From: an uncultured Bacilli bacterium
Lineage (GTDB): Bacteria > Bacillota_I > Bacilli_A > RF39 > UBA660
Direction of reading: 5' to 3'
Length of the DNA: 50,288 bases
Assembly: GCA_904374795.1 (NCBI GenBank)
Contig: CAJFEV010000009.1
Location: 1 to 50,288, forward strand
Position numbers and translations under genes: made by a program. Positions 31,020 through 49,743 of this stretch are shown here, one piece after another. The first letter of the stretch is position 1. The number at the start of each line of letters is the position of its first letter. The notes beneath the pieces were generated by a model, which worked only from the letters and a program-made list of their open reading frames with translations, did not search any database and was not told the origin of the DNA.

Positions 31020-31094
31020 GCAGGTGTGGTTCAGTGGCTAGAATGCGACCTTGCCAAGGTTGAGACGGGAGTTCGATTCTCCTCACTTGCTCCA
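31020..31094 (+). tRNA. tRNA-Gly (anticodon GCC)
   Basis: 75 nt folded by hand: acceptor GCAGGTG/CACTTGC, D arm GTTC..GAAT, anticodon stem CGACC/GGTTG with loop TTGCCAA, T arm GGGAG-TTCGATT-CTCCT, discriminator T, encoded CCA. Confidence 0.9.
31049..31094 (+). repeat. attL: 46-bp direct repeat (3' part of tRNA-Gly)
   Basis: CCTTGCCAAGGTTGAGACGGGAGTTCGATTCTCCTCACTTGCTCCA, identical to 49698-49743. The base before each copy differs. Confidence 0.9.
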
Positions 31095-31116
31095 TCGATT
31101 CTCCTCACTTGCTCCA
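31095..31116 (+). repeat. Tandem extra copy of the last 22 nt of the tRNA
   Basis: TCGATTCTCCTCACTTGCTCCA occurs at 31073-31094 and again at 31095-31116. Confidence 0.9.
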
Positions 31117-31127
31117 AAATGTCTACA

Positions 31128-31152
31128 AAGCCTTTATTCAAGGGCTTTTTTA
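31128..31152 (+). terminator. Weak terminator-like hairpin downstream of the tRNA (island-borne)
   Basis: AAGCCTT..AAGGGCTT stem followed by TTTTT. Confidence 0.35.
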
Positions 31153-31227
31153 ATGATTTTTTATAAAAAAATACCTGTTTTTTTGCTAAATTTTATCATT
31201 TTTTCCTACTTTTTAGTCCTCGTGTGT

Positions 31228-31240
31228 AAATTGTGTGTAA
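31228..31240 (+). repeat. 13-bp AAATTGTGTGTAA repeat near the left end (partner at 49545-49557)
   Basis: Exact 13-mer in the same orientation near both island ends, within GTGTGT-rich context (CGTGTGTAAATTGTGTGTAACTAATACACAG). Confidence 0.6.
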
Positions 31241-31318
31241 CTAATACACAGTTTTCTTTATTTTTCCAAGAAAAAATGGCAATAAAAAATCCCAAAAGTT
31301 TCATAATTTTTTGGGATA

Positions 31319-32869
31319 TTATCCATCAGGAACTAATAAATTAATTTCTTGATATATTGGTTTAAATCCAACAAAAATAGCTTGTAATTCTTTATCAGTT
31401 AATGTGCTATCAATCGCCGATATCTTGGTGAATATTGGGTAAAGATTACATAAATAATCTTGAAAATATTTAAGATCTTTTGAAAAAGACTCGTCATCTA
31501 TTGGCTTATTAAAAATTTTAATCATAATTTCTTTTAATTGCTTTTGATTTTGAAATCTTCCTACTACAATAGAATATAGTTCATAAACATTGAGACCTAA
31601 AGTATTTCTAAATTCTTGATCAAACTTTTCAGTAAGTTTTCTATCATCATCTAAATTAGTTTGATTATATGTATTTAAGAAAGTTTCAACTTTAGTCCAT
31701 CCACCTCTATTCATTAACGTTTTAAGATTGTTTTCTCCTCGTGCCATAAAAGTATGAGAGGAATGCCTTAGGTTCTTAAGGGGTAAGTTTTGAAAACCTA
31801 ATAAATGAATAAATTTTCTCCATTCCTCAGTAAATCGGGAAGGATCAATAAAAACATTATCATCCCATGAAGTAAAAATAAAATCATCATTTGTTATATA
31901 CCAGCCACAGGCTTCTTTAAATTTTCGATAAAAATCTATCAATTTTAAAGCTTCTGAACTCAGAGCTATTTCCCTATAACTACCTAAAGTTTTTAAGTCT
32001 TTGATAATTAGTTTTCCCGTCAAACGTGATTTTACGATAGCTCTTGATATATTAATAGACATCCTAAATCGATTGATATCCGAGTATTTAATGGCTGCAA
32101 TTTCTTCAATTCGTAAACCTAATTCTAAAAATAAATTTACTAATAATTTAAAGCGAATATTCTTTTTACTAACTTCTCGTAAAACATAGTGCATTTCATC
32201 CAAAATCAAATAATTCTGTTTTTGAGGTTTATAAGATGGTTTGTTATCTATAGAAGTAAATGGATTTGTTTTAATGATTTTTAATTCTTTGCGGTAATAC
32301 TCAAAACTTGAATGCAAAAGAGAATAGGGATTTGTTAAAGTATTTACAGAAATGACACCATCTTTTTTCGTGCTTTTAACTGGTTTAATTTCTCTCATAT
32401 TCTCGACAATTTGTCGTGCCATTTCTTCATCAATATCCACAATTTTTTTATCCAAAATATGAAGTTCTTGAATGTATCTACTTTTAAAACTGAGAATATC
32501 TTTTTCATATGTACTTCTTTCTAAATTCTTCTTTTGTACTTGTATCAATCGATATTCAAAATATTTTTCAAATCCCATTTCTAAAGTCATGCTGTTTTGA
32601 GAGTCTTTAGTTTCTAAAAGTTCTTTTTCTTTTGCATCTATGAAAGCATGGAAGGTTTGCCATTTCCATTTTATAGCTTCTATTAAATCATGAGTAACTT
32701 TAGTTGGTCTTTTAGTACCAAATTTAAGATAAACCCGAAATTTATTAGGAGCTATTTCATAAATTCCTTTTAAATCATTATCTGTAATTCCTAATCGTTT
32801 AGCTTCACTAAATGATATAGAAAAACCTTGTAAAGCCTCTTTAGTAAGAGTTTGTTTGTTACTCGCCAT
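31319..32869 (-). CDS. int: Tyrosine-type site-specific integrase with a ~110-aa C-terminal extension
   Basis: LELGLRIEEIAAIKYSDI (Arg I), NLRHSSHTFMARG (H-x-x-H/R box) and GGWTKVETFLNTYNQ (catalytic Tyr). Lies adjacent to the tRNA att site. Confidence 0.85.
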   Translation of the reverse strand: MASNKQTLTKEALQGFSISFSEAKRLGITDNDLKGIYEIAPNKFRVYLKFGTKRPTKVTHDLIEAIKWKWQTFHAFIDAKEKELLETKDSQNSMTLEMGFEKYFEYRLIQVQKKNLERSTYEKDILSFKSRYIQELHILDKKIVDIDEEMARQIVENMREIKPVKSTKKDGVISVNTLTNPYSLLHSSFEYYRKELKIIKTNPFTSIDNKPSYKPQKQNYLILDEMHYVLREVSKKNIRFKLLVNLFLELGLRIEEIAAIKYSDINRFRMSINISRAIVKSRLTGKLIIKDLKTLGSYREIALSSEALKLIDFYRKFKEACGWYITNDDFIFTSWDDNVFIDPSRFTEEWRKFIHLLGFQNLPLKNLRHSSHTFMARGENNLKTLMNRGGWTKVETFLNTYNQTNLDDDRKLTEKFDQEFRNTLGLNVYELYSIVVGRFQNQKQLKEIMIKIFNKPIDDESFSKDLKYFQDYLCNLYPIFTKISAIDSTLTDKELQAIFVGFKPIYQEINLLVPDG

Positions 32870-33185
32870 ACCGTCGCCATCTTTCTAACTGTTTTGCTGT
32901 GTCGTCAGTGTATACTTTTCCTTCTAAAAGTTTTTCAATATCAGGAATTTTAAAATGTCTTACATGACCAATCCATGTAACAGGTAATTTTCCTTCTTGA
33001 ATACATTTGGTCAAAAAATATTTAGATAATTTGGGATAGAGTTTTAAAATATCATTTATGCTATACAATTCATCTTTTTCAGTGTGTAAGCTTTCTTTAA
33101 ACATATTATCTTCATAAGACTTAATAAGTTGTCCTATTTGAATAAATAAATCGCTTAATTTAGTAATTTCTTGATTCATAATCAT
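32859..33185 (-). CDS. xis: Excisionase-like HTH (HTH_17/MerR-type) protein
   Basis: YSINDILKLYPKLSKYFLTKCIQEGKLPVTWIGHVRHFKIPDIEKLL. Overlaps the int start by 11 nt. Confidence 0.55.
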   Translation of the reverse strand: MIMNQEITKLSDLFIQIGQLIKSYEDNMFKESLHTEKDELYSINDILKLYPKLSKYFLTKCIQEGKLPVTWIGHVRHFKIPDIEKLLEGKVYTDDTAKQLERWRRYGE

Positions 33186-33592
33186 TTCTCCTTCATTTTT
33201 TCATCAATGGTTATTTCCTTGTTTAAATTAGATTTCAAAAAATTGATGATATAATCTCGGACTTCATCATGTAATTCTGAAGCTCTATTTTGAGTAAATA
33301 AAGTTGATTTAACATTATCACTCCATGTATTATTTTCTTTACAATCAGTATGATATCCAATTAAAACTCGCATTTGATTATTACAATCTCTTTCTTTTGG
33401 TAAATATGCCCATATACAATAATCGAGTTCGGGAGCATATTTATCATACACTTTTAATAAACCGCCTTGTTCAATGCCATCATTAAAAATCTCGATAATT
33501 CCATCTATATCTATCTTATCTTTCAATAGTTCATTTCCTACGGAATTAAAAATAGATATTACTTTCTTTATTCTATCGCTCCAAACAACCAT
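33182..33592 (-). CDS. Hypothetical protein
   Basis: ORF with a 4-nt overlap onto xis. ATG 33592 (MVVWSDRIKK) preferred over the upstream GTG at 33637. Confidence 0.45.
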   Translation of the reverse strand: MVVWSDRIKKVISIFNSVGNELLKDKIDIDGIIEIFNDGIEQGGLLKVYDKYAPELDYCIWAYLPKERDCNNQMRVLIGYHTDCKENNTWSDNVKSTLFTQNRASELHDEVRDYIINFLKSNLNKEITIDEKMKEK

Positions 33593-33912
33593 AATATCAC
33601 TTCTTTCTAAAAATACTTGTAATTTGAATGTTACCACAAATAAAATTAATTAAAACCCTCTGCTGAAAGATAGTTTATATAAGTTTATACTGTTGTAGCT
33701 TTGAAAAAGCTAAAAATTTCTTATTAAAATTTTTAGCATTCCAATTAGTAGTATCCTTATATATTTAATAAATACTTCTATTTTTACTATTATAACGAGA
33801 TTTCATGGCTGCGAGAAACTGCTCGTCAGTTTAGCTTATTTAAAGCTCAGCACTTTAGATTTTTATAGTTCTAATAGAGCTTGTACTCTTACATTTTCGT
33901 AAAAGCTCAGCT

Positions 33913-34281
33913 CTACAAAGACCTAAGCAAATCTAATAGCATTTTTTTACTTATTTGTGCTTGTACGTCTTCATCTACATACGATAGATACCATAAATGA
34001 CTTGTAATATCTTCTTGAAGTTTCTTTGTCTCACTATCAATGTTAGGTAGTTTATCATATTTTTTAAAACACTTATCGCATACAAGTACATGATTAAGCC
34101 ATACTAGGTAGCCGTGACTTATAGATTTATTACAGAAATCACAAACTACCCGATGACTTGATATATAATTATCCGAACTATCAAGAAACAAGTAACTATA
34201 GCCATTCGCAGTATATTGAAGCTCTTTTCTGGCTTCTTTAAGTCCTGCGATAGGATTATTCATTTTTTCTTGTAATTTCAT
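33913..34281 (-). CDS. Zinc-ribbon protein
   Basis: CDFC-x17-CDKC four-Cys motif. RBS GGGAGGTGAAAT upstream. Confidence 0.5.
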   Translation of the reverse strand: MKLQEKMNNPIAGLKEARKELQYTANGYSYLFLDSSDNYISSHRVVCDFCNKSISHGYLVWLNHVLVCDKCFKKYDKLPNIDSETKKLQEDITSHLWYLSYVDEDVQAQISKKMLLDLLRSL

Positions 34282-34317
34282 AAAAATTTCACCTCCCTTC
34301 TAAATATTGTTCGCACT

Positions 34318-35271
34318 TTAATTAGTTTCATTTTTTCCATCCTTTCTATAAAACGTTGACAATTCTTCAAATGGTATTGCAACATTTTTTCCTTTTATGT
34401 TGTTAAATTCTGCTACAGTTAAAGGAGATATACTGTCTTTTTTCTTCATAAGATAATAAGCAATATAACATTCATTTACAATTCCTTTTCCATATTCTAA
34501 AAATGCTGGAATTATAATTTCTGTAGCAGAATTTATACTCTTAATAACCTTTAATCCTAAACATACTCCAGGCAATTTAGAACACATAGCCTTAAAATCC
34601 ACGTATTTATGTTTAGCTGGGATATTGCAAATTTCTAAAATTGTTGTACAATCTTGATCTGTACATTTAGGGCCGTATCTTTTTAATACAGTACCAATAG
34701 GCATGACAATCTTCGTTCTAAAACTATTAATGATTAAAAATGTAGTTTTAGTTTGATTAGCCAGTGCCTTATATTTTTTAAAAAGAAGATTTAAAGGGCG
34801 TGAATCATAATTACTATTATTATTAGTAATCGAAATCCCTTTCTTAGCACCCTTATGCTTCAAATTTAAATAACCACTGTTAATCAGATTCGGTAAAGAA
34901 TCAATAATAACTAATGAAACTGACTCTTCAATAAACCCATCAATAACTTCTTCTAAGGATTCAAAGTTATTAATTTTAAACAAATTGAAATATGTGCCAT
35001 CATAAGAAGATAAGCCTATAGTTTTGAGTTTATTATTGGTAACAGAATTATCTGCATCAATGTATAAAACAGTCTTGCCTAAGCTACAGTAACTTAAAGC
35101 AATCTGTAAAGCTATAGTGGTTTTTCCAGAAGTAGATTCTCCTACAATTTGTGTAAACGCACCTGGTGTAAAAGCATCTAGAAGATCTAAAGGAAAAATG
35201 TTTATTTTCAAATCTTCTGTATTTACTGTGAAATCAGCGTATTTTTTTAATAAATATTCTTTCATATTCAT
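34318..35271 (-). CDS. RecA-family ATPase / recombinase-like protein
   Basis: Walker A GESTSGKTT, VLYIDADNS and Walker B LVIIDSLPNL follow the same order as RecA (GPESSGKTT, FIDAEHA, VVDSVAAL). FLIINSFRTKI resembles RecA FINQIR. Confidence 0.65.
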   Translation of the reverse strand: MNMKEYLLKKYADFTVNTEDLKINIFPLDLLDAFTPGAFTQIVGESTSGKTTIALQIALSYCSLGKTVLYIDADNSVTNNKLKTIGLSSYDGTYFNLFKINNFESLEEVIDGFIEESVSLVIIDSLPNLINSGYLNLKHKGAKKGISITNNNSNYDSRPLNLLFKKYKALANQTKTTFLIINSFRTKIVMPIGTVLKRYGPKCTDQDCTTILEICNIPAKHKYVDFKAMCSKLPGVCLGLKVIKSINSATEIIIPAFLEYGKGIVNECYIAYYLMKKKDSISPLTVAEFNNIKGKNVAIPFEELSTFYRKDGKNETN

Positions 35272-36587
35272 TCTCCTTTCAAAAATTCATTTATATCTAT
35301 AGGCGACATCGATGGTGAATTATTATCTGGCAGTATATCCTCCATACTATAATCTTTTTGTGTTGGAATCGGAGGTTCACCAGCAATATAGAATTCTCCA
35401 TCAGCATAGGTGTTAACCGTATCTAATGGAAGAGCGGCTCCTCTTAGTTTCACAGCTCCAATTTTAAATAATTTGGAAACCTGAGACATAGTGTCTGTAT
35501 ATACAGTCACGATGTATGAAGAGGCTCTTTCTAATTCGCTAGCTTCAGCAATTTGATTTATTTTGTAATTACCATTATGCTTGCTAGCGTAATCAATGCC
35601 TTCACGATTAACTTGTGAAAGTAAAATAACTATGATTTCACGTTCGGTTCCTAAAAAAGATAAACATTGTTTTCTAAAAAAGGAAACATAACGATTAATA
35701 ATAGAAAATTCACTTTCATTTGATGAAAGATTCTCAGAGTATTTTAATAATTGAACGTGATCGATGACTAAAATATCAATGCCATGATCCGGTTCATGAT
35801 TTTTAGAAAAATACTCTTGTTTAATACATTCATCAACTTGCTGGATTTTTTCCTCAAAAATCTTTGTGCTATATTCTCCTAAGTCACTTTCTCCTAAAAC
35901 ATGAAAACATCCTTTTAAATTTGAAAAATAATCATAAAGGTCATGAAATAGAAATGACTTATCTTCGTCAGAAAGTTTGTTCTGTGTAATATCTTGAACA
36001 GATAAAGAATGTCCTATAATATGAGAAATTCGTGAAAATATCTTATTCAAAATATTAAATGGTGTTTCTTCTAAAGAAAAATAGCATACATTATATCCAG
36101 ACTTTACTGCGTTTAAACATATGTTAACTGCATATGTAGTTTTCATGCATCCGGGTCCTCCAGCTATTGTGCATAAATTACCTGGTAGTAATCCTCCTGT
36201 ACGTTTGTCAAGTTCTTCACATAAAAGAGATACACCTTGAATTTTTTTAGAATTCGAATATATATCTATATACTTATTTAATATAGAAACATAATCAGAC
36301 TTACTAGCCTCAATAGCTATAAGTAAATCACGAATCTTATCATTTGCAGTACTATCTAAGTATTTATTGGATGATAAGTATTCATTTAAAGCTTTTATTT
36401 GCTTTAGAATGTCTACATCCGTACTACATAAACGACTTAATTCATTTAAATGATGCAAAACTTTTGAATAATCTTGCCTTAATACTGAATTTTCTAATGC
36501 AGGTCCTATTTCATCGTAGAACACGTTACAAAACTTATGATTATTAAAGCCAATTACTATATGTTCATCTTTTTTTTGAACATTCAT
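35268..36587 (-). CDS. DnaB-family helicase (C-terminal ATPase domain) with a novel N-terminal region
   Basis: Walker A GGPGCMKTT, FSLEETPFNIL (compare FSLEMS), Walker B ILVIDHVQLL, LLSQVNREG (compare SQLxR), ASELERASSYIV. Confidence 0.75.
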   Translation of the reverse strand: MNVQKKDEHIVIGFNNHKFCNVFYDEIGPALENSVLRQDYSKVLHHLNELSRLCSTDVDILKQIKALNEYLSSNKYLDSTANDKIRDLLIAIEASKSDYVSILNKYIDIYSNSKKIQGVSLLCEELDKRTGGLLPGNLCTIAGGPGCMKTTYAVNICLNAVKSGYNVCYFSLEETPFNILNKIFSRISHIIGHSLSVQDITQNKLSDEDKSFLFHDLYDYFSNLKGCFHVLGESDLGEYSTKIFEEKIQQVDECIKQEYFSKNHEPDHGIDILVIDHVQLLKYSENLSSNESEFSIINRYVSFFRKQCLSFLGTEREIIVILLSQVNREGIDYASKHNGNYKINQIAEASELERASSYIVTVYTDTMSQVSKLFKIGAVKLRGAALPLDTVNTYADGEFYIAGEPPIPTQKDYSMEDILPDNNSPSMSPIDINEFLKGE

Positions 36588-36732
36588 AATGATCCTCCTT
36601 TCTAATTAAAATTTGAAAATTATTAAACAGTTATCAATGATTTTTTATCATCAAAAACTATAATTTTCATATCAAACTTCTTGCTTGATGTATTCATGAT
36701 ATCGCATGCCTAATTGATAATCTAGGTTAAGT

Positions 36733-36779
36733 ATTATCGTTGAATTATCGTTGACATTTGAAGTAAAATCTTATAGACT
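36733..36779 (+). promoter_or_regulatory. Promoter TTGACA-N17-TAGACT overlapped by a perfect tandem 11-bp repeat ATTATCGTTGA x2
   Basis: Repeats at 36733-36743 and 36744-36754. TTGACA 36751-36756, TAGACT 36774-36779. Confidence 0.5.
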
Positions 36780-36806
36780 AACTAACAATTGAAAGGATGT
36801 GTTTTC

Positions 36807-38822
36807 ATGGAAAAACAAAATAGAAAAAAATATCGTAAAGATTTTGGCGTGGATGATAGCCTAAAAAGTAACGAAATTTATATAAGCCAATTTGTTGAAC
36901 TAGAGCAAAACATAACTAGTCAATTAAAAGAAAATACTTCTTTAACTGAAAAGGAAATAAACAATAAAGAGTTTTTAGAAAGAAACATTGGCTCCAAAAA
37001 TGTAACTGTTAATTTAGATTTAATAATTAGGGTAATAGATTCTATATTTCAAGAATATCAAACTAATTATTTAGTTAAGGAAAAATTTAAAACTTTAAAG
37101 GAACTTATAAAATATTTATCAAAAGACATGGAAAAACAAATAATTAAGCAGCTAGAAAGCATTGAAGACAATATATCGCCTAATTTATCTGAAAATGAAA
37201 TATTTTTAAAAAAAATTGAGAACTCTCAAAATGGAATTGGTAACTTAGATTTAATAATTGATATAATAACAGATATCGTAAAATTCAAATCTCAAGAATT
37301 TTCAACAGTATATAAAAGCAAAAACGACGAGATCCGTCAAATTCTAAACAGATTTATAAAATACGCATTGAAAAACACAGAAAATCAGGTAATCGAACAG
37401 TTAAAAAATATCAAAAAAAATACTGCAAATAATTTTTCTGTAAACGAAACAACCTTGAAACAATTTGAAGATTCTCAAAATATAACTGTTAATTTAGATT
37501 TAGTAATTAATACAATAAGAAATACCATAACCCTTAAGTCTCAGAATTTTCAAAGTGAATCTCAAAATAAATATGAAAAAGAAACAATAACCTGTTTTAT
37601 AAACTATATTTTAAAAAATGTTGAAACAAAATTAATTGATCAATTAACGGAAAATGAAAAAAACATTATAGCCAATTTTCCTTATGACAGCCAGTTTTTG
37701 GAAAAACCTACGGATCCTTCAAATATATATACAATTGCGGAAAATGTAATTATCGATGTGGAGGAAATTTTTGAAGAAATAACAAGAATTGGAAAAAATA
37801 TATCTCTAGAGTTTCAAAAAGAATATAAAGTCAAAAATGGAAAAAAATGTGATAATTTATACAGTCTAAAAAAATTTGCGTTGAAAAATATGAACAAAAA
37901 AGTAAATTATTATTATGGAAAATTCATAATAGAGTGGGGTTATCCATATCTTACATCTGTAACAATTGGTAATCACGAAGGCTATAAATCTTTTCTGGAA
38001 GATTGTCTTCTTATATATCATTATTATGATTTGCATAACAAAATATGGGAATATGAAAATTTTTATATAGACGAGGATGAGAATCAAAATCAAAAGGAAT
38101 TTGGTAAAATTCAAAAAGCATGGAACTTTATAAATCCTAAAAACGAGGAAAAATACAACAAATTACATGCTTTTTATTCAATCTTTTCTAATTATAGTTT
38201 TACATCTACAGCATATAATCCACATTTTCATAATCAAGTAAAAAGACTAACTAGCGAAAAACAAACTAATAAAGTTTTAACAAAAGATGAAATAAAGAAT
38301 CAATTATTTTACATGAGAGCAGAACTCATGCAACTAATTGTTAAAAAAATGCAATTGTCAAATATTGATTTATTCGTACTTTACTTACCGATGATTAATA
38401 GAGACACTCAAACATTCAAATATAAAGTTACAGCACAATCTCTGATGGCTATCGCTTATCACAAGTTATTAATAAACTTAACTTCTAAAATATATGGTCC
38501 GCAAAAAATCAAGTGTATTTATTGTGATAACTACATTGAAAAAAGTAATAATAAGAAAATATGTAATGTATGTCAAGAAAAAGGAATTGCTAAAAAGCAA
38601 GCCAGAAAAAAATACGAACAAAAAGCAGATAGAAAAAAGCAGTATGGCAGTCGAGAAAATGCGAAAAAATATCTAAAAGAAATACATGAAAAAGACCCTG
38701 AAAACATTCCAAAGCAACTTGCTAAAGAAATCCAAAAATATGATAACAAAAAAATCAGCTATAAAGATGAAGAACCCTTAAAAAAGATATTAATACAAAT
38801 AAAAAATGAAGAGTCAATGTAG
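36807..38822 (+). CDS. Repeat-containing protein: four ~83-aa internal repeats, an unknown central domain, a C-terminal CxxC..CxxC zinc ribbon and a Lys-rich tail
   Basis: Repeats anchored on N(V/I)TVNLDL(I/V)I..I (three clear copies, one degenerate). CIYCDNYIEKSNNKKICNVCQEK. ATG 36807 with AAAGGA RBS. Confidence 0.55.
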   Translation: MEKQNRKKYRKDFGVDDSLKSNEIYISQFVELEQNITSQLKENTSLTEKEINNKEFLERNIGSKNVTVNLDLIIRVIDSIFQEYQTNYLVKEKFKTLKELIKYLSKDMEKQIIKQLESIEDNISPNLSENEIFLKKIENSQNGIGNLDLIIDIITDIVKFKSQEFSTVYKSKNDEIRQILNRFIKYALKNTENQVIEQLKNIKKNTANNFSVNETTLKQFEDSQNITVNLDLVINTIRNTITLKSQNFQSESQNKYEKETITCFINYILKNVETKLIDQLTENEKNIIANFPYDSQFLEKPTDPSNIYTIAENVIIDVEEIFEEITRIGKNISLEFQKEYKVKNGKKCDNLYSLKKFALKNMNKKVNYYYGKFIIEWGYPYLTSVTIGNHEGYKSFLEDCLLIYHYYDLHNKIWEYENFYIDEDENQNQKEFGKIQKAWNFINPKNEEKYNKLHAFYSIFSNYSFTSTAYNPHFHNQVKRLTSEKQTNKVLTKDEIKNQLFYMRAELMQLIVKKMQLSNIDLFVLYLPMINRDTQTFKYKVTAQSLMAIAYHKLLINLTSKIYGPQKIKCIYCDNYIEKSNNKKICNVCQEKGIAKKQARKKYEQKADRKKQYGSRENAKKYLKEIHEKDPENIPKQLAKEIQKYDNKKISYKDEEPLKKILIQIKNEESM

Positions 38823-41955: not shown

Positions 41956-42001
41956 AATACACTCTCCTCAATTTTTATGAAAAATATCATTATGTTAATT
42001 T

Positions 42002-42475: not shown

Positions 42476-42526
42476 AGATTATCATACTTAGAGTATTTTA
42501 TCAAGCACTTAGAGTGTAATTTACAC
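42476..42526 (-). promoter_or_regulatory. Second copy of the palindrome-N9-TTGATA-N17 promoter (-10 TAATCT)
   Basis: Palindrome at 42514-42526, -35 at 42499-42504, -10 at 42476-42481. Confidence 0.5.
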
Positions 42527-42646
42527 ATTTTAAAGAAATTTTGAAATTAATTGTTTAAACACACAATATTAGAGAGTGTGAGACGATTTGAACCACATGT
42601 GAACCATTTAATAAAAGAGAGAATATTACCATACCATAACTTATAA

Positions 42647-42673
42647 TAAAGAAAAAATGACACAAGTTGTGCC
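42647..42673 (-). terminator. Terminator at the upstream edge of repeat copy 2
   Basis: Minus strand GGCACA-ACT-TGTGTC followed by a T-tract, 4 nt after the stop of the 164-aa gene. Confidence 0.5.
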
Positions 42674-42676
42674 AAT

Positions 42677-43171: not shown

Positions 43172-43189
43172 CTAATTACCTCCATTCAT

Positions 43190-44344
43190 CTATTTAAGAA
43201 AGCCATATTCATATAAAAGATTAATAATCTGTTTTTCTTGAATATATTCGTCACTCATGGAATAAACTTTACCATTTCCGATTTTCAGAAAAACTGGAAA
43301 ACCATAAAAAACATAATTGCTGCTACTTTCAAACATAGACCGAAGTTCTTCTTCTTCTGTTCTAGTCAAATCACCATAATTCAAATGATATGCATATAAC
43401 CCATAATTGTTAACCACTTTAGTAAGTTCCTCTTCAAAATAAGTGCAATAAAGACAATTATTAGGTATAGTTATATATAAAATACTATAATCCTTATCAT
43501 AAAATAATTGAGTAAACTCGTCAAAATTTATTTCTTTAATATATTCTTCTTTTGGTAAATTTTCTTCAGTAGTATCTTTTTGTATATCATCTGAATCTTC
43601 TTGAGTTTGACTGTTAATCTCTTCTCGTACTTCATCAATTGGTTTAGTCACTATTTCATATTGTGAAGGATCTATACTAGGAATTTCCACATCGTAAGGA
43701 ATATAGTCAGATTCGTCAACTATTTGTTTGCCATTTAATTTATATATATTACCATCTTTCGGATTATACAAAAACTCTTGAATTGAATATCTATTAATGT
43801 CTTCATAGGTTGTAAGAGTTAAAGTTAAATCTCCACTCTGTAAATATTTGCCATTTTCTAAAATAGTTCCACTAACAGTAATATCTTCATACCAATTAAG
43901 TACATTGGAATTCCCCAATCCATCTTTTTCTGTACCAAGTATGTGATTATAGGTACTTATAGTTACTGTATTCCCCTGTGTAGAATACGAACAGTCGTTT
44001 GAAGTCGCTACATACAGGACATAATCTGATTTTAAATTTTCAATATAATAGCATGTATTATCATCTTTTAATGATATATAATTACCAGTCCCAATTGTTT
44101 TAGTTGCATCTTGATAATTTTCATAATTATATGCACGAGATGATAACAAATTATAGTCAAATTCTTCTGGCGAAAATTTATACAATGTACCGATTTTAGT
44201 TTCTTCCTGTTCTACAATTTCATTAGGCTTATCATTTGTTTGGGGATTTGCATTAATTTTATAAATAACAATAAGTCCAAATACAAGAATTACTAGAATT
44301 CCAAATAGAAAATAATACCATTTTTCTTTTAAAAATCTTTTCAT
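43190..44344 (-). CDS. Membrane-anchored extracytoplasmic protein with a C-terminal thioredoxin-like domain (CLYC active site)
   Basis: N-terminal TM WYYFLFGILVILVFGLIVIY. C-terminus ILYITIPNNCLYCTYF and YGFPVFLKIGNGKV parallel the thioredoxin WCGPC and GIPTLLLFKNGE elements. Confidence 0.6.
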   Translation of the reverse strand: MKRFLKEKWYYFLFGILVILVFGLIVIYKINANPQTNDKPNEIVEQEETKIGTLYKFSPEEFDYNLLSSRAYNYENYQDATKTIGTGNYISLKDDNTCYYIENLKSDYVLYVATSNDCSYSTQGNTVTISTYNHILGTEKDGLGNSNVLNWYEDITVSGTILENGKYLQSGDLTLTLTTYEDINRYSIQEFLYNPKDGNIYKLNGKQIVDESDYIPYDVEIPSIDPSQYEIVTKPIDEVREEINSQTQEDSDDIQKDTTEENLPKEEYIKEINFDEFTQLFYDKDYSILYITIPNNCLYCTYFEEELTKVVNNYGLYAYHLNYGDLTRTEEEELRSMFESSSNYVFYGFPVFLKIGNGKVYSMSDEYIQEKQIINLLYEYGFLK

Positions 44345-44439
44345 TTTTAACTTCCTTTCTAAGATTTGTTAAATTAAATGTTTTTTCATTTTTATACTTT
44401 TTAATATTTAAGAAGTAGCTCCTGCAAATATATAATCCA

Positions 44440-44663
44440 CAAGATATAGTAGATATTAAATTATAATCAAATTCATCTTTCGGAATTTGATATAATATTC
44501 CAATCTTTTTTGCTTCATCTTCATTCTCAACTTAATTTGAATTTCTAATAGAAATGGAAACCGCAATAACTATGATAATCATGATAGCAACTACAAACAT
44601 TACTAAGTAATGCCAATATCTTCTAAACATATTTTTCGTTTTTGCTCTGATTGACTGTTTCAT
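44440..44663 (-). pseudogene. Truncated paralogue of the N-terminus of the 384-aa thioredoxin-like gene
   Basis: ATG 44663, TM peptide MKQSIRAKTKNMFRRYWHYLVMFVVAIMIIIVIAVSISIRNSN, TAA at 44534-44532, then in-frame VENEDEAKKIGILYQIPKDEFDYNLIS. This aligns with VEQEETKIGTLYKFSPEEFDYNLLS of the downstream gene. Confidence 0.45.
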
Positions 44664-44664
44664 T

Positions 44665-45042
44665 TTATTGTCGTAAAGCTGCTAAAACTTTATCTCTGCT
44701 AGCATTTGCCCATCTAAAATAAGAATTTCCATCAGCAGCAGCCAAATATCCAAACCAAATTGTAGAGGAGTTATAATAGTCTATAAGCTCATCATTAGTT
44801 GTAGTACATTTTACTAAAATAATTTCGTCCTTTGTTACTTCAGTAGCATTACACTTAATTTCGTTAGATCTAAGTGTTGTCCACATACCAGCAATTTCTG
44901 GTATATCACTTTTTGCATATATCTCAGCTTCTGAACAAACAACTGTGTTACATCCTCCTGCATTAAAGTTAGAATTTGAATTATATCCACATCCTGTTAC
45001 CGCAATAATTACTATTACTCCTAATACCAATATTTTTTTCAT
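44665..45042 (-). CDS. Lipoprotein with four additional cysteines
   Basis: MKKILVLGVIVIIAVTGC lipobox. ATG 45042 with AAGGGTGTGAG RBS, preferred over the track start at 45108. Confidence 0.7.
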   Translation of the reverse strand: MKKILVLGVIVIIAVTGCGYNSNSNFNAGGCNTVVCSEAEIYAKSDIPEIAGMWTTLRSNEIKCNATEVTKDEIILVKCTTTNDELIDYYNSSTIWFGYLAAADGNSYFRWANASRDKVLAALRQ

Positions 45043-45083
45043 TTCACTCACACCCTTCAATAGCATTTGTATACTACAAGTAT

Positions 45084-45135
45084 ATAGTAACATACCTGTA
45101 GTATACATTCAACCACTTTGAGTGTAATTTTACAT
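45084..45135 (-). promoter_or_regulatory. Promoter TTGAAT-N17-TACTAT with palindrome GTGTAA-TT-TTACAT 9 bp upstream of the -35; divergent XRE/lipoprotein control region
   Basis: -10 at 45084-45089, -35 at 45107-45112, palindrome at 45122-45135. An extra 10-bp inverted repeat GTATACTACA (45069-45078) / TGTAGTATAC (45097-45106) brackets the -10. Confidence 0.5.
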
Positions 45136-45170
45136 CATTTCAAGTTGTTAAAATTAAATTGGTGATGAAA

Positions 45171-45548
45171 ATGGTTATAAACGATAAAGAAAATTACAAT
45201 AAAGTGAAAGATTCTATTTCTATGGATAATTTAAAAAATATCATTAAAAGTAAAGGATATTCACCAATTAAGGTAGCGATGGAATCAAAAATAAGTAGTT
45301 CCACAATCAATGCCTATATGAATGGGCAAAAGTTACCAAGTGTTACAACATTAGTAAGTATGGCAAACTTTTTAGATTGTAACTTAGATTTTCTATTAGG
45401 AAGAACGGATATTCCAACAAAAATTGATGCAATAGAGAATATCAATAAAAACCCCAAATTAGCTTTATTGTTTCAAAATATATCTTCTTTGCCGAAGGAT
45501 AAACAAGAATTAGTCGAAGCATATGTAAAAGGATTGATGGATAGATAA
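45171..45548 (+). CDS. XRE-family HTH transcriptional regulator
   Basis: LKNIIKSKGYSPIKVAMESKISSSTINAYMNGQKLPSVTTLVSMANFLDCNLDFLLGRTD. Start uncertain (TTG 45159, ATG 45165 or ATG 45171). Confidence 0.75.
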   Translation: MVINDKENYNKVKDSISMDNLKNIIKSKGYSPIKVAMESKISSSTINAYMNGQKLPSVTTLVSMANFLDCNLDFLLGRTDIPTKIDAIENINKNPKLALLFQNISSLPKDKQELVEAYVKGLMDR

Positions 45549-45626
45549 AGGAAATATTGATTGTTGTTAATATTTCTTTTTTCTTTGACAAGAAAGTTTT
45601 TTATTGAAAATAAACTAGATTTTTAA

Positions 45627-45875
45627 TTAAAATGGCAAATCATCATTTGTAACAAGAACTACATCATTAGACTCTTGGAATTCTGGTTTCCATTTTTCTA
45701 ATATTTTGTTAATATATCGAAAACTTACTGCTCCACTAAAAACTGCTTCTTTTAAAGCGGATAAGATAGTATCATCTTTAAAACTAGATTGCCATTCAAG
45801 AATTATGTTTTTTTCAATTGGAGTGAGTAGTCTTCCAAACTCTTGTTGAAAAGTGTCATAAACATTAGTGTTCAT
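45627..45875 (-). CDS. DnaD-domain (DnaB_2) replication protein, C-terminal domain only
   Basis: FQQEFGRLLTPIEKNIILEWQSSF..ILSALKEAVFSGAVSFRYINKILEKWK matches the DnaD/phage replisome-organizer repeat. Confidence 0.65.
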   Translation of the reverse strand: MNTNVYDTFQQEFGRLLTPIEKNIILEWQSSFKDDTILSALKEAVFSGAVSFRYINKILEKWKPEFQESNDVVLVTNDDLPF

Positions 45876-45903
45876 AGATCAACACCTCCATTTCTATGAA
45901 TTA

Positions 45904-46242
45904 CTAAAATATTTTTATGTAATTATCTTTTTTAATAATGATAGGAACTATTTTATCAGTCATGGGATGAATAAACTTCATACAGGTATCTATAGTTCTT
46001 CTAGTGTCATTAATACGGATAATAAACTTTCCAAAATTACTGGTAATATATCTTTCTCTCCGAAGTATAGATAGGTATGGTTTGTAAACTGCTTCTATCT
46101 CTTCCATAGCTTCTTTTTTTAATATTCCTAATTTTTTGTTTCTTTCTTTGGAATAAACTAAACCATTCTGATAAATGCTAAGCTTTATTTTATGATCACG
46201 GGTTTCAACACTAACAACCCATTTGTTGGTAGTTTTTGTCAT
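45904..46242 (-). CDS. Hypothetical protein
   Basis: 112-aa ORF co-oriented with its neighbours. Confidence 0.4.
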   Translation of the reverse strand: MTKTTNKWVVSVETRDHKIKLSIYQNGLVYSKERNKKLGILKKEAMEEIEAVYKPYLSILRRERYITSNFGKFIIRINDTRRTIDTCMKFIHPMTDKIVPIIIKKDNYIKIF

Positions 46243-46534
46243 AAAGTTCCTCTTTTCTTATAAACGTTACTAGTCAACCCCTTTAAACTTTTTCAGTTTT
46301 TCTTCTTTGTTATTATTCTTTTAATTGTTTTTATTATTATTTTTTAGTATTTGTTTTTTTTTAATTACTTTTGTTATTACTCTTACTGTTACTCTTATTA
46401 TTAATAGTTTATTATTATTTGCGTGAGTGAAAAAATCACGTTCACGACTGTTCCAGTTGTTAAACTCATCTTGATATGCCCCCAATATTCTTTTCTATTA
46501 TTTATGAGAATAACTACATAATAGTTTAACAACT
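46243..46534. other. AT-rich, repeat-laden non-coding region (candidate replication origin)
   Basis: No ORF of 60 aa or more. Repeated GTTATTA/TTACTCTTA units (GTTATTACTCTTACTGTTACTCTTATTATT) and hairpin CGTGAGTGAAAAAATCACG. Flanked by replication-type genes. Confidence 0.3.
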
Positions 46535-46825
46535 TTAAATTTCTTCTAATTCTAATTTATTTTTTTCTTCTAAAATTCTAAGAGAAAATTTTTCTTTCAA
46601 TATCTTTTTTACTTTCTCCATCATTAACTTAGCTTCTTCTGGAGTAAGTAAATATTCATCCTTAGAAATTTGTATAATGGTTTCCAAACTTAACTTTTGA
46701 TAGTTTTGATAATACTTATAATAAGATACAATATTTAGAGCAATTAAATAAGAAAGATACCTAAAATAATTGTCCTTTAAGTCTTTTTCAAATCTTTGCT
46801 GAAATTGATTTTTCTTCATAAACAT
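46535..46825 (-). CDS. Hypothetical protein
   Basis: 96-aa ORF immediately downstream of the PcfJ-like gene. Confidence 0.4.
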   Translation of the reverse strand: MFMKKNQFQQRFEKDLKDNYFRYLSYLIALNIVSYYKYYQNYQKLSLETIIQISKDEYLLTPEEAKLMMEKVKKILKEKFSLRILEEKNKLELEEI

Positions 46826-46838
46826 TTTTCTCTCTTTC

Positions 46839-48266
46839 TTACACCTTTTCTAAAACTTTCTTTTCCCAGCTTTCAAGAAATGGAAGAATATTAGGTGCGA
46901 CTGGATTATTATATTTCATTTTACTTTGTACAATCTGTTGACCTCGTACTTCAATCGTAACGAATGATGTATGTGGTTGAGTAAGTAATCTAAGAAAATA
47001 AATGTCACATTTGCCTGTAGCATAGCTTTTAGAATAATTTTTATAAACACAATTATGTTGTTGCTCAGCTTCATCTCGTAATTCTTTTAAAGAAGGAGCT
47101 GGAAAGACAATAAATTGATTATTTTTATAAATGTTTTTCTCTAAATCCTTAGCTCGTTCTTGAATAAGACTATCAATATTTTTATCTAAAATCTCTTTCA
47201 TAACTTGAGTAACAGAATCATGTGCTTCCATTAAATTGTCAGGATATAATATCTTTTTATCATGTAAATCGTAATGAAGTGTACTACACATATTAAGATA
47301 ATCTAAATATTCTATTTCATGGTGAGGATAAAACTTCAAAACTTTATAGTATGCTTTTTCTAAATCTACATATTGACTAATTTCCTTTAAACGACTGAAC
47401 GCAGCTAACTTTCTTATTAATCGAATATCCTTTTTCTTAAGAATTCTTAAAACTTTTAATTCTCGATAAATTATATTATGTTTTTTCATAAAAGGATAAA
47501 AGGTTTTAGGAACGCCAAATACTTCTTCAAAACTTTTTCCTTGATGAAAATCCGGAGCATTCATTGCTAAATAATACAATTTCATCTTATTTAAAATTTC
47601 AAAACTAGGCATATAAGCATGACAAGTAAGATAATCACTAATACAAATATATTTATTTTTCAAAAAGTTTAGAAAAGATTGTAATTCACTATATTGAATA
47701 CTTGTGTTTTTAATAAGATTTTTTACATTATAAGGACAAACCATACCATAAACATCTCGATAAGCCCATCTAAAATTTCTTGCTCGCCAATGAGTAAATT
47801 CTTCATAGTGAGAAATATACATATATCCCATATGATTATGAACTTGGTTTGTAACAAAATCATAAATTTGATTTGTTCCCATAACAAAACTTCTCATAAA
47901 CTCCGTGAGAGAGTGTTCAATTTTATTATTAAAAAAATCTGAATATAGCTCAAAAGTCCGAATAACAAATGTGTCTTGGATCTTATCAAGAAGTTGTAGA
48001 TTATCCCGAAAGACATAATGAGTAAGTCGATCAGTTTTCACTAATAATTTTTGCTTACAATTAGGACATTTATAAGATTGATTCACTTTAGCTTTGCACT
48101 GGAAAATATATCCGCAATTGGTACAACGATATTCTTTCTTTGATTTTATAATTAAATTATGAGTTTTTTCTTTTTCAGAAATAAATCTTTGAAATGTTTT
48201 AGGAATAATAAACTTACGATCCGTCAAATCCAATAAAGCTCTAAATTCTTTTTTGATATAACTCAT
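46839..48266 (-). CDS. PcfJ-like protein with an N-terminal zinc ribbon
   Basis: CTNCGYIFQC..CPNCKQK zinc ribbon. The C-terminal QQHNCVYKNYSKSYATGKCDIYFLRLLTQPHTSFVTIEVRGQQIVQ resembles the PcfJ-like domain from memory. Confidence 0.5.
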   Translation of the reverse strand: MSYIKKEFRALLDLTDRKFIIPKTFQRFISEKEKTHNLIIKSKKEYRCTNCGYIFQCKAKVNQSYKCPNCKQKLLVKTDRLTHYVFRDNLQLLDKIQDTFVIRTFELYSDFFNNKIEHSLTEFMRSFVMGTNQIYDFVTNQVHNHMGYMYISHYEEFTHWRARNFRWAYRDVYGMVCPYNVKNLIKNTSIQYSELQSFLNFLKNKYICISDYLTCHAYMPSFEILNKMKLYYLAMNAPDFHQGKSFEEVFGVPKTFYPFMKKHNIIYRELKVLRILKKKDIRLIRKLAAFSRLKEISQYVDLEKAYYKVLKFYPHHEIEYLDYLNMCSTLHYDLHDKKILYPDNLMEAHDSVTQVMKEILDKNIDSLIQERAKDLEKNIYKNNQFIVFPAPSLKELRDEAEQQHNCVYKNYSKSYATGKCDIYFLRLLTQPHTSFVTIEVRGQQIVQSKMKYNNPVAPNILPFLESWEKKVLEKV

Positions 48267-48616
48267 GAAAAATCAAATTGCATTTGGTTTGAAGGAATGT
48301 TTTTTAATTCAGTTTTAGAATCTTTTTTTGGATTAGTACTAGATAGTAATATTCCTAGTTCAGCATTAGTTTTTTGAAAATAATCAATACACCATTGATA
48401 AACTTGTGAGTCTTCAATAATAGAAATATTATTAACGCAATATTCTTTAGCATTATCTCTCAAATAATTTACTAAATCTTTCAAATTTTTTTCTGGTCTT
48501 AAATAGTATTCACTCATATCAGGAACTTGTAACAAATAATTTACAATTGTGGTTAAAGGTTTATTTTGAAAATTATCTTGATTATATAATTCTTTTAGTC
48601 TTTCATAACCATTCAT
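48263..48616 (-). CDS. PcfK-like (AcrIIA9-related family) protein
   Basis: About 117 aa with NYLLQ...KNLKDLVNYLRDNAKEY...DSQVYQWCIDYF pattern, and a 4-nt overlap with the PcfJ-like gene (pcfK-pcfJ synteny). Confidence 0.4.
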   Translation of the reverse strand: MNGYERLKELYNQDNFQNKPLTTIVNYLLQVPDMSEYYLRPEKNLKDLVNYLRDNAKEYCVNNISIIEDSQVYQWCIDYFQKTNAELGILLSSTNPKKDSKTELKNIPSNQMQFDFS

Positions 48617-48649
48617 AATTTTTAACTCCTTTCAAATAATTAGCTATTA

Positions 48650-48940
48650 CTACACATTCAATTTTTCAAAATGCTTTTTATATGAATTTAATGTTGCACG
48701 AATAATTTTTTTATCTTTCCTAAAAGAACTTTTTAGCAAAAAATAAATATTAGGAACATAAGTAACCGATGTTAAAGCAGAATCATAATTTCCGTTTAAC
48801 AAATCAACAAAAGATTGTGGTATACGTTGAATAAATGTTCCAAAACTTAATTCTTTTAATATTTTCAATACATCATCAGCCATCAAAAGTTTTACTTCTT
48901 CGCCGATATCATGTATACTTTTCTTTTGCATTTTAAACAC
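48650..48940 (-). CDS. Hypothetical protein
   Basis: 96-aa ORF with GGGAGGTG RBS. Confidence 0.45.
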   Translation of the reverse strand: MFKMQKKSIHDIGEEVKLLMADDVLKILKELSFGTFIQRIPQSFVDLLNGNYDSALTSVTYVPNIYFLLKSSFRKDKKIIRATLNSYKKHFEKLNV

Positions 48941-49188
48941 CTCCCATAACTACTGTTTAACAAAGGTGTCAATTATTTACAACCCCTTTACCAAAATTTA
49001 ACAAAAAAAGAACACACTAACAAAAGTGTGCCATAAATTAATCTACAAATATTATTTTAAAAGAAACACGCAAAAGATAATACACGATAATTACCCCAAA
49101 TGAGACGTTTTGAGAAACGTAAGAAACGTTCGAATATGCTTGGACCCCAAAACACGAAATAACCTTTGGTCAACATTTGATGCACGTT

Positions 49189-49407
49189 TTAATTTTCGGT
49201 ACTATCTTTGTATTCTTCAATATGAAAAAGCTCATATAGTTCTATAAGAAGTTTAACTTCTTCTCGTTCGATAACTAAGTGATCGTTAAAAGAGAGTAGA
49301 GTACCAATTAGACCTTCGTCATCAACATCATCAGTTAATTTAAAAAGAACTTTCTTTCCAACTAATTGTTTTATCTTTTCTATAAATTGTTTATAATTTC
49401 TATCCAT
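49189..49407 (-). CDS. Hypothetical small protein, first gene of the leftward island operon
   Basis: ATG 49407 (MDRNYKQF) with GGAG RBS, preferred over TTG 49440. Confidence 0.4.
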   Translation of the reverse strand: MDRNYKQFIEKIKQLVGKKVLFKLTDDVDDEGLIGTLLSFNDHLVIEREEVKLLIELYELFHIEEYKDSTEN

Positions 49408-49459
49408 ATGCAAATCTCCTATATCTTTTTTGAATTTCAAACAAATTTCTTCAAGAAAT

Positions 49460-49488
49460 ATTGTACAACACTTCTAGTATAATCACAA
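49460..49488 (-). promoter_or_regulatory. Promoter TTGTGA-N17-TACAAT at the right end of the island
   Basis: Plus-strand ATTGTA at 49460-49465 and TCACAA at 49483-49488. Followed on the minus strand by palindromes ATTTCTTGAAGAAAT and TTTGAAATTCAAA. Confidence 0.45.
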
Positions 49489-49544
49489 GAGGCATAAAAT
49501 TAACACCTCAAGTGTAATTAAAAAATAACATAAAAAGTGTGTGC

Positions 49545-49557
49545 AAATTGTGTGTAA
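49545..49557 (+). repeat. 13-bp AAATTGTGTGTAA repeat near the right end (partner at 31228-31240)
   Basis: Context AGTGTGTGCAAATTGTGTGTAATTGTGTTCAA. Confidence 0.6.
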
Positions 49558-49697
49558 TTGTGTTCAATTTATTATGAACTTTCATGTTTTTTTGAACAAT
49601 TTGACTCTGAATTTGAAGAAAAAAGATATGACTAATTTTTTAAGGATTTATCGTGCTTCATGAGGAATTTTTGTGCTAATTTTTTCAAAAAATAAGT

Positions 49698-49743
49698 GCC
49701 TTGCCAAGGTTGAGACGGGAGTTCGATTCTCCTCACTTGCTCC
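49698..49743 (+). repeat. attR: 46-bp copy of the tRNA-Gly 3' part
   Basis: Identical to 31049-31094. Confidence 0.9.

Follow-up and report, generated by a model that had tools for sequence, protein, structure and literature searches.

The 50,288-nucleotide stretch of contig CAJFEV010000009.1 analysed here (the window), from an uncultured Bacilli bacterium, carries at its only tRNA gene an 18,650-bp insertion (31095–49744) that is probably an active integrative element, unable to transfer itself and belonging to a family that we did not find described. The tRNA gene, tRNA-Gly(GCC), was the only one recovered by ARAGORN (Rfam score 60.8 bits), and a perfect 46-nt direct repeat consisting of its 3' part recurs 18,650 bp further on, the tRNA itself staying intact (Table 1). 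A repeat of this kind bounding the segment had been pointed out in an earlier note, made from the letters of the sequence; the repeat search bore this out and, by its coordinates, corrected the right end of the segment from 49743 to 49744. Comparison of assemblies ruled out a chance origin of the repeat, which is a target-site duplication. The locus combines the features that define a tRNA-integrating genomic island, namely ends that are both marked by a direct repeat of the tRNA 3' part, a tRNA left intact, an adjoining integrase and an empty site in relatives. Between the repeats lie approximately 25 open reading frames (ORFs), nearly all on the minus strand.

All comparisons rest on metagenome assemblies. 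Public metagenome assemblies yielded an identical integrase in at least 37 blocks, with island copies 98.9–99.98% identical to that of the window and the large ORFs all intact in most of them. Three loci (L011, L014 and L016) carried the left flank of the window at 99.91–99.99% identity and were free of the island, the tRNA being followed directly by GAGGGAAATT... and a serine-recombinase element; the empty tRNA-Gly site that the earlier note had proposed to look for therefore exists, and the island is missing from near-identical strains. Both states were represented in sample ERZ28574012, where L017 matched L011 at 99.97% as far as the final base of the tRNA, beyond which it continued into the integrase, while L040 ran from the right end of the island across the 46-bp copy and on into that same GAGGGAAATT... 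flank, at 99.78% identity to L011 over 4,589 bp. Occupied and empty sites are thus alike except for the island and the 46-bp duplication, a comparison that establishes the discrete tyrosine-integrase insertion at tRNA-Gly suspected from the sequence.

The copies were also distributed across diverged hosts. Identity in the adjacent host gene block (Zip, YebC and a two-component system) was 85% for L001 versus L002 and ~70% for L001 versus L031 or L035, against ~99–99.9% for the island, indicating recent movement between hosts that are distinct at the species level or beyond. Relatives were hosted by metagenome-assembled genomes (MAGs) of uncultured gut Bacilli, 'Tenericutes', 'Mycoplasma' and Ca. 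Onthocola, which we read as uncultured low-GC gut Bacilli, RF39-like by their MAG names. None of 185,579 GTDB species-representative genomes contained the island, the best integrase there being 52% identical. One peculiarity of the window is a perfect tandem copy of the last 22 bp of the tRNA, seen as 22-nt gaps in alignments to L001, L003, L004, L005, L009, L012, L017 and L020 and missing from every other island copy compared; possible origins are a recombination scar and a strain-specific slip.

Integration appears to be served by a module of three genes (the integrase, a 108-aa gene overlapping its start, and p151), which recur together in 19 of 21 related loci at 38–65% identity (38–51% for the 108-aa protein, 41–65% for p151). 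With 47.3 bits against a PF00589 cut-off of 27.1, the integrase is a tyrosine recombinase; its catalytic residues R253, K280, R368 and Y401 were invariant, and H369 nearly so, in an alignment of 19 homologues, whereas W391 was read in the window sequence only. Pfam and PHROGs agree with the earlier note in placing a tyrosine integrase next to the intact tRNA. The same note had called the adjacent gene excisionase-like, and here its position, size and conservation beside the integrase are in keeping with that role, while profile searches gave it no backing: the 108-aa protein matched nothing in Pfam, PHROGs, NCBIfam or PDB, and its own profile run against PDB sequences gave nothing meaningful. 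The third protein, p151, likewise had no family or PDB match, nor a meaningful result from a profile search of PDB sequences. Integrase relatives of at least 48% identity adjoined tRNA-Gly(GCC) wherever the tRNA-side sequence was recovered, whereas a ~40% subgroup did not. Just inside the two ends lie the only window matches, in the same orientation, to the 19-bp motif GTGTG(T/C)AAATTGTGTGTAA (0.01 expected by chance). Judged from their sequence and placement, these are putative arm-type integrase-binding sites and would flank the core on an excised circle, the attP junction of which is expected to read ...AAAATAAGTG, the 46-bp core and AAATGTCTACAAAG....

The island showed no recognisable means of making a particle or of conjugating. 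Among its 25 ORFs, Pfam and PHROGs searches returned no capsid, portal, terminase, tail, lysis, relaxase, coupling-protein or type IV secretion system (T4SS) family, which upholds the earlier claim that virion and conjugation genes are missing; none was found in relatives either, and the hypothetical ORFs, for which hidden Markov model (HMM) searches had been suggested, gave no match to structural phage or conjugation proteins in either collection. No match to the island as a whole emerged when 50,697 phage records were searched by megablast. What the earlier note did recognise, a DnaB-family helicase, a RecA-like ATPase, a DnaD-domain protein, an XRE regulator, a serine recombinase and a PcfK/PcfJ-like pair, was confirmed throughout by Pfam and PHROGs; a PD-(D/E)XK nuclease (PDDEXK_4) was absent from that list.

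The replication genes recur in related loci. Homologues of the DnaD-domain protein, presumably a replication initiation or helicase-loading factor, were found in all family members (described below), and those of the DnaB-type helicase in L055, L067, L068, L073 and L075; the RecA-like ATPase has a 42% homologue beside the helicase in L068 and would act as helicase partner, loader or recombinase. The XRE regulator, a predicted repressor, has homologues of 50–69% identity in L067, L068, L073, L075 and L076. The small resolvase recurs among integrase-defined relatives and, at 31–75% identity, in the same five loci, and would resolve multimers of the excised circle; its conservation across the family rules out a separately inserted transposon as its source. 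Several small ORFs are shared as well: p112 with L067, L068 and L073; p96a with these three, L075 and L076; and p96b and p72 with L068, L073, L075 and L076 (39–67% identity). Neither p112, p96a nor the doubtful 54-aa ORF matched any family, and NCBIfam and permissive Pfam scans of the small ORFs yielded noise only. Pfam and PHROGs searches of the island ORFs revealed no primase and neither a D5_N nor a DUF5906 domain. No homologue of the 122-aa Cys-rich protein was detected among other family members. A candidate operator motif, AGTGTAATTT, common to three island promoter regions, was dropped as not enriched over chance.

PcfJ is the signature gene of the element family. Its homologues of 470–486 aa fell into at least 199 protein clusters at 36–56% identity, and PcfK homologues (38–48%) lay directly upstream of PcfJ in all family members. 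An AlphaFold2 (AF2) model of PcfJ, predicted with high per-residue confidence (pLDDT 91), had 35 phage matches in BFVD, all of them unannotated PcfJ-like proteins, and no fold match in PDB, and on this model the protein appears structurally novel. PcfJ homologues were present in 143 phage genomes, sited in the early/replication region, and in 367 plasmids, of which 224 were predicted to be mobilisable and 95 conjugative; one 41% homologue adjoins genes for a single-stranded DNA-binding protein (SSB), DUF3846 and ArdC-N. Published literature on PcfJ- and PcfK-like proteins is sparse, and we found in it no described island built around the two.

Judged by shared gene content, the island belongs to a putative family of ~15–19-kb elements with exchangeable integrases, no description of which was found in the literature searched. 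The core consists of XRE, PDDEXK_4, PcfK, PcfJ, DnaD, the small resolvase and the DnaB-type helicase, joined in L068 by the RecA-like ATPase, and these genes co-occurred in one integrase-bounded block without a virion or conjugation gene in the window and in L067, L068, L073, L075 and L076; the latter five had no Pfam match to virion or conjugation proteins. Besides the window island, both ends are defined in L068, an island 15,588 bp long and flanked by a repeat of the 5' part of tRNA-Leu(CAA). It has an unrelated 326-aa integrase and 13 homologues of window genes: p96b, p96a, p112, p94a, XRE (50%), PDDEXK_4 (27%), p72 (66%), PcfK (38%), PcfJ (51%), DnaD (46%), resolvase (31%), DnaB (50%) and the RecA-like ATPase (42%). 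L067 carries the core genes and ends in a 544-aa large serine recombinase, and L073 combines them with a 498-aa tyrosine integrase and an opposite-strand 387-aa protein of the p677 family. L075 and L076 repeat the gene order of the window, with p96b, PcfK, PcfJ, p96a, DnaD, an opposite-strand XRE gene (69%), accessory genes, the resolvase (74%) and an opposite-strand gene, L075 continuing into a DnaB_C gene. Conservation across the family makes the resolvase and PDDEXK_4 core genes and not cargo; neither is incidental to the element.

The integration module itself was also found with other payloads, including DnaB helicases (L062) and a D5_N/DUF5906 primase-helicase with SSB and resolvase (L064), and an integrase relative of 41% identity belongs to an element that encodes a MobL relaxase along with a coupling protein of the VirD4 type (L065). 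For the 45 ORFs that lie within 10 kb of the integrase in six tRNA-Gly relatives, the only matches were to replication, helix-turn-helix (HTH), resolvase, zinc-ribbon and similar families; these integrase-defined relatives were covered by 10-kb flanks, their far ends lying outside that range.

Table 1 Features of the tRNA-Gly(GCC) island and its borders in the window (aa, amino acids; Zn, zinc; TM, transmembrane; TRF, Tandem Repeats Finder).
Feature	Position	Strand	Basis and remarks
tRNA-Gly(GCC), intact	31020–31094	+	ARAGORN, Rfam; its 3' 46 nt (31049–31094) = attL
Extra tandem 22-bp copy of tRNA 3' end	31095–31116	+	Repeat search, TRF, alignment gaps
19-bp motif GTGTGTAAATTGTGTGTAA	31222–31240	+	128 bp inside attL
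Tyrosine integrase, 516 aa	31319–32869	-	Pfam PF00589 2.7e-12, phrog_1 1.2e-38
108-aa protein overlapping integrase start, putative excisionase/directionality factor	32859–33185	-	Position, size, conservation
p151, third gene of integration module	33182–33637	-	Conservation; start probably Met16, giving 136 aa
122-aa protein, Cys-rich motif read as zinc ribbon	33913–34281	-	Weak LIM/ClpX zinc-binding matches only
RecA-like ATPase, core domain only, 317 aa	34318–35271	-	Pfam RecA 6e-9, phrog_97 UvsX-like 9e-16, PDB RecA matches
DnaB-family replicative helicase, 439 aa	35268–36587	-	DnaB_C 1.2e-19, phrog_19 1.2e-31
p677, largest opposite-strand gene	36789–38822	+	Three N-terminal ~80-aa repeats, C-terminal ~390-aa domain, Zn ribbon, basic tail
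Small serine recombinase (resolvase/invertase type), 215 aa	38828–39475	-	Resolvase 4e-17, phrog_125
p94a, small conserved ORF	39628–39912	-	32% homologue in L068
PD-(D/E)XK nuclease (PDDEXK_4), 415 aa	40131–41378	-	PF14281 1.8e-13
222-nt direct repeat, copy 1	41385–41606	-	Upstream of nuclease gene; hairpin 41596–41579
p113 (41614–41955) and p94b (42106–42390)	41614–42390	-	Accessory pair bracketed by 222-nt repeats; p113 with two predicted TM helices
222-nt direct repeat, copy 2	42464–42684	-	Hairpin 42674–42658
p164, member of accessory envelope block (42677–45108)	42677–43171	-	ORF
p384, membrane-anchored, thioredoxin/PedC-like C-terminus	43190–44344	-	Weak Thioredoxin_2, weak PedC-like; TM segment from sequence
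p147, lipoprotein-like	44665–45108	-	Signal peptide/lipobox read from sequence
XRE-family HTH regulator, 129 aa, divergent from accessory operon	45159–45548	+	HTH_3 1.8e-10, phrog_8 5e-15
DnaD-domain (DnaB_2) protein, 82 aa	45627–45875	-	PF07261 3.2e-16, phrog_186 1.8e-15
p112 (45904–46242), doubtful 54-aa ORF (46321–46485), p96a (46535–46825)	45904–46825	-	Homologues; ORF calls
PcfJ-like, 475 aa: N-terminal Zn ribbon, beta-rich domain, C-terminal PcfJ domain	46839–48266	-	PF14284 6e-29, phrog_8470 8e-44
PcfK-like, 117 aa	48263–48616	-	PF14058 1.3e-5, 25.8 bits, below cut-off of 27; phrog_7445 2e-9
p96b (48650–48940) and p72 (49189–49407)	48650–49407	-	First genes of leftward operon starting at attR end
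Second 19-bp motif copy GTGTGCAAATTGTGTGTAA	49539–49557	+	142 bp inside attR
attR, 46-bp copy of tRNA 3' part	49699–49744	+	Repeat search, sequence
Left end of second mobile element, outside the island	49745–50288	+	Hairpin/terminator 49788–49809; 91-aa gene 49856–50131

The island was then set against the known kinds of integrative element. Phage-inducible chromosomal islands (PICIs) have five core components in the SatelliteFinder definition (PMC10085698). The integrase is present in the island; a primase-replicase, a small terminase and a capsid-morphogenesis gene were not found; and as to the regulator (an AlpA, MerR or Stl homologue), the island has an XRE-type HTH protein, as well as the xis-like 108-aa protein without a family match. 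It resembles PICIs, including the Staphylococcus aureus pathogenicity islands (SaPIs), in gene content (an integrase beside the att site, accessory cargo, an HTH regulator and a replication module of its own), in its size near 15 kb, in lacking tail and lysis genes, and in the tandem occupation of integration hot spots. It differs from them in replicating with DnaD, a DnaB-type helicase and a RecA-like ATPase instead of a primase-replicase, in the placement of its integrase at the end of a long operon and co-directional with it, in lacking the small terminase and capsid-morphogenesis genes, and in a core (PcfJ, PcfK, PDDEXK_4, resolvase) that falls outside the five PICI components. None of the genes expected of a capsid-forming PICI (cfPICI) or a prophage (capsid, portal, large terminase, head-tail connector) was matched in the island.

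Integrative mobilisable elements (IMEs) are defined by a relaxase and/or an origin of transfer of their own, and integrative and conjugative elements (ICEs) by a T4SS, a coupling protein and a relaxase; no relaxase family and none of the three ICE components was matched in the island. Firmicute IMEs, under the definitions of the Guedon/Payot group, have an integration/excision module and no T4SS, target tRNA genes, exchange integrases and accrete in tandem. The island shares the integration/excision module, the lack of a T4SS, the tRNA-gene target, modular integrase exchange and tandem arrays, and it differs in having neither a relaxase nor a recognisable mobilisation gene and in its phage-type theta replication set. 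Prochlorococcus tycheposons are reportedly tyrosine-recombinase elements at tRNA genes with helicase/primase-type replication, cargo, no virion or conjugation genes and an unclear transfer vehicle; the likeness is one of overall design only, and the host phylum is unrelated and the island core (PcfJ, PcfK, PDDEXK_4, DnaD, resolvase) distinct. Temperate Firmicute phages such as Clostridium phage phiCs5676-1 carry an integrase, XRE-type repressors and, next to a replication initiation protein, a PcfJ-domain protein, but they possess full morphogenesis and lysis modules, and identity is only ~25%. The island fits none of the PICI, IME and ICE definitions and falls among the integrative elements unable to transfer themselves.

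A life cycle can be proposed for such an element. The XRE repressor would hold it silent; upon induction, the integrase, together with the 108-aa protein and its 136/151-aa partner, would bind the 19-bp arm motifs ~130–140 bp either side of the core and excise a circle. Copying of this circle could then fall to the DnaD-domain protein, the DnaB-type helicase and the RecA-like ATPase, with a primase from the host, and the small resolvase would separate circle multimers, while PDDEXK_4, PcfK and PcfJ might help to process DNA or to establish the element once it has reached a new cell. Transfer from cell to cell would proceed through a helper, a dependence proposed solely because transfer genes are missing. 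As to the vehicle, packaging into helper-phage capsids seems the leading candidate at somewhat less than an even chance, conjugative mobilisation in trans a rather less likely one, with passive routes accounting for the rest.

Several points weigh against an active element of this kind. No excised circle (attP) or replication intermediate was observed, and the attP and attL junctions were unmatched in the JGI metagenome and IMG/VR collections, which lack the island altogether. Among 2.9 million IMG/VR contigs there was no close relative of the integrase, PcfJ or the helicase, which speaks weakly against encapsidation. A primase, an origin and iterons were not identified in the island, and the excisionase role proposed for the 108-aa protein comes with no HMM or structural match. 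A packaging or mobilisation function may be hidden among the unassigned ORFs, which make up about half of the island. Contigs joined via the repeated tRNA could in principle be chimeric; every junction type was agreed on by several independent assemblies.

Among the more specific readings, a strict phage satellite is plausible, at odds a little short of even. A helper protein would lift XRE repression, and excision, replication and packaging in helper capsids would follow as in PICIs and P4, by way of an unrecognised module that might involve PcfJ, PcfK or small conserved ORFs. The phage affinities of the core (phrog_1, phrog_97, phrog_19, phrog_186, phrog_8, phrog_8470 and phrog_7445) argue for it, as do the PcfJ homologues in the early/replication regions of 143 phage genomes with their 35 structural matches in BFVD, the D5_N/DUF5906 primase-helicases of some integrase-defined relatives (as in PICI and P4) and the failure to find a relaxase in any of the six family members. 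The 15–19-kb size, tRNA site, repressor and self-replication module are PICI-like too (PMC10085698). Set against this are the lack of a small terminase, capsid-morphogenesis or other packaging gene in Pfam and PHROGs searches, the lack of close relatives in IMG/VR, the fact that no helper is known, and a spread over hosts with 70–85% identical flanks that exceeds most phage host ranges. A bolder version, in which the island is a working member of a large unnamed satellite family of gut Bacilli and Clostridia that hijacks helper capsids without a recognisable terminase or remodelling gene, PcfK/PcfJ or small ORFs providing a new packaging or helper-takeover module, is speculative and on present evidence unlikely.

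An integrative mobilisable element, which we consider rather unlikely, would carry an unrecognised origin of transfer (oriT) and be mobilised in trans by a co-resident relaxase and T4SS, PcfJ and PcfK acting as recipient establishment (leading-region) functions. The plasmid-borne PcfJ homologues (367 plasmids, 224 predicted mobilisable and 95 conjugative), the 41% homologue found with SSB, DUF3846 and ArdC-N, the 41% integrase relative whose element encodes MobL and a VirD4-type coupling protein, the Mob_Pre elements in tandem at the same tRNA and the apparently broad host range all point this way. However, no relaxase or coupling protein was found in the island or the five other family members, and the island moves independently of the adjoining Mob_Pre element, as the right neighbours differ. 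We also count against this reading that described IMEs are not known to feature a DnaB/DnaD theta-type replication set.

That the island serves mainly for defence or exclusion, with its selective role in PDDEXK_4 and the envelope proteins and its mobility incidental, we regard as improbable. The nuclease matches the PADLOC candidate defence gene PDC-S26 (E 1.6e-16, profile positions 19–204 of 397), and the variable cargo slot holds a lipoprotein and membrane proteins. But PDC-S26 is a candidate system only, and the PADLOC search of the island gave no further defence match; moreover, PDDEXK_4 is a conserved core gene, the first transcribed divergently from the repressor in L067, L068 and L073, where its homologues lie. 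Conservation in the family and this position fit a role in the element's own DNA metabolism. The earlier note had remarked that such elements often carry defence or exclusion cargo; a candidate defence gene is indeed present, as a core gene. Least probable by far is a decayed, immobile prophage remnant, consisting of the integration, lysogeny and replication part left after late-gene loss: the gene content does look like the early region of a temperate phage, but we rejected this reading on the recurrence of the same late-gene-free set in at least six members with three unrelated integrase types, the large ORFs intact in most copies, the near-identical copies in diverged hosts and their presence or absence in identical backgrounds, and no close integrase relative was found on any viral contig of IMG/VR.

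The accessory genes of the element lie in a variable slot between XRE and the resolvase, filled in the window by a lipoprotein, a membrane thioredoxin-like protein and a small membrane protein; homologues of p147 and p384 occupy the same slot in L075 and L076, and these envelope proteins may serve exclusion or host benefit. Direct repeats of 222 nt, their two copies 99% identical, bracket the small accessory genes p94b and p113 and precede the PDDEXK_4 gene. Each copy opens with a hairpin resembling a terminator and continues into a promoter/leader, and the pair look like a duplicated regulatory cassette or the footprint of a cassette insertion. For p94b and p113 there were no family matches and no homologue was detected among other family members. 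A word-indexed search with p677 recovered only p677 itself, whereas full HMMER gave eight remote homologues of its C-terminal domain. The 387-aa protein of L073 (13059–14222), located after the resolvase and on the opposite strand as in the window, matched this C-terminal family with E 1.6e-52; relative to the family, the three N-terminal ~80-aa repeats are an extra of the window. Motifs of the family include ENGYPY, PIYN..YRxY..SLIGIAY..LL.NLT, a CxxC...CxxC zinc ribbon and a basic tail. An AF2 model of p677 (pLDDT 68) had no PDB fold match, and the gene is interrupted by a stop in L008.

To the right of attR the window enters a second mobile element. The earlier note had seen there the original terminator of the tRNA; the sequence is instead the left end of this element, present after many unrelated tRNAs. 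Its 91-aa protein recurs unchanged downstream of many unrelated loci (L021–L030) in near-identical surrounding DNA, and the element begins immediately after the ...CTCCA tRNA end of Gly-GCC in other species, Gly-TCC and Cys-GCA, and at one non-tRNA site. In other assemblies the 91-aa gene is followed by a 644-aa large serine recombinase and then a 460-aa Mob_Pre relaxase, and some copies carry erm-like, ABC-F or tet-like genes. This suggests that the recombinase of the second element targets the CCA end of tRNAs. Megablast of the second element against PLSDB found no match. We take it to be comparable to mobilisable transposons of the Tn4451/Tn4453 type, with which it shares a large serine recombinase, a Mob/Pre relaxase and, in some copies, resistance cargo, and from which it differs by inserting right after the tRNA CCA end. 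Related variants (GAGGGAAATT..., TAGTGAAATG...) hold the same post-tRNA position in other strains. The right neighbour differs among island copies, indicating that the island moves independently of the second element and that tRNA-Gly is a hot spot with tandem accumulation.

On the other side, the left flank (27042–30971) encodes an ABC-FtsX fusion transporter, a protein of the UDG superfamily and an Endonuclease_NS_2 nuclease. L011, the left flank of which is near-identical to the window from ~20.2 kb, carries a DUF285 protein and a P-type ATPase further upstream. All of these appear to be ordinary host genes. G+C content in the window is ~28%; the GC skew is strongly positive over 1–31 kb, where host genes occupy the plus strand, and negative from ~31 kb, the position of attL, and the genes of the island run opposite to the local host genes. 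In some assemblies the tRNA is preceded by the host block (a 208/210-aa gene, Zip, YebC, DUF1016, a response regulator and a histidine kinase), and elsewhere the same Zip/YebC block is found downstream of attR in the opposite orientation with other genes in between (L001, L002 and L005 versus L031 and L035), indicating inversions or rearrangements around the tRNA-Gly hot spot in different hosts.

These findings mean that uncultured gut Bacilli swap an 18.65-kb element across species-level boundaries, although no route of transfer is apparent in its sequence. The recurrent module of XRE, PDDEXK_4, PcfK, PcfJ, DnaD, resolvase and DnaB, combined with varied integrases, provides a model for finding more such 'hitcher' elements. 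At the tRNA-Gly hot spot, a tyrosine-integrase island adjoins a serine-recombinase/Mob_Pre element, some copies of which bring resistance genes with them. The finding that a candidate defence gene from PADLOC can belong to the core of a mobile element matters for how defence candidates are read from genomic context. Finally, PcfJ and PcfK, domains of unknown function, are widespread among phages and enterococcal plasmids, and the module offers a way to ask what their role is; should they prove to form a packaging or takeover module, this would give a function to PcfJ and PcfK in the phages and plasmids that carry them.

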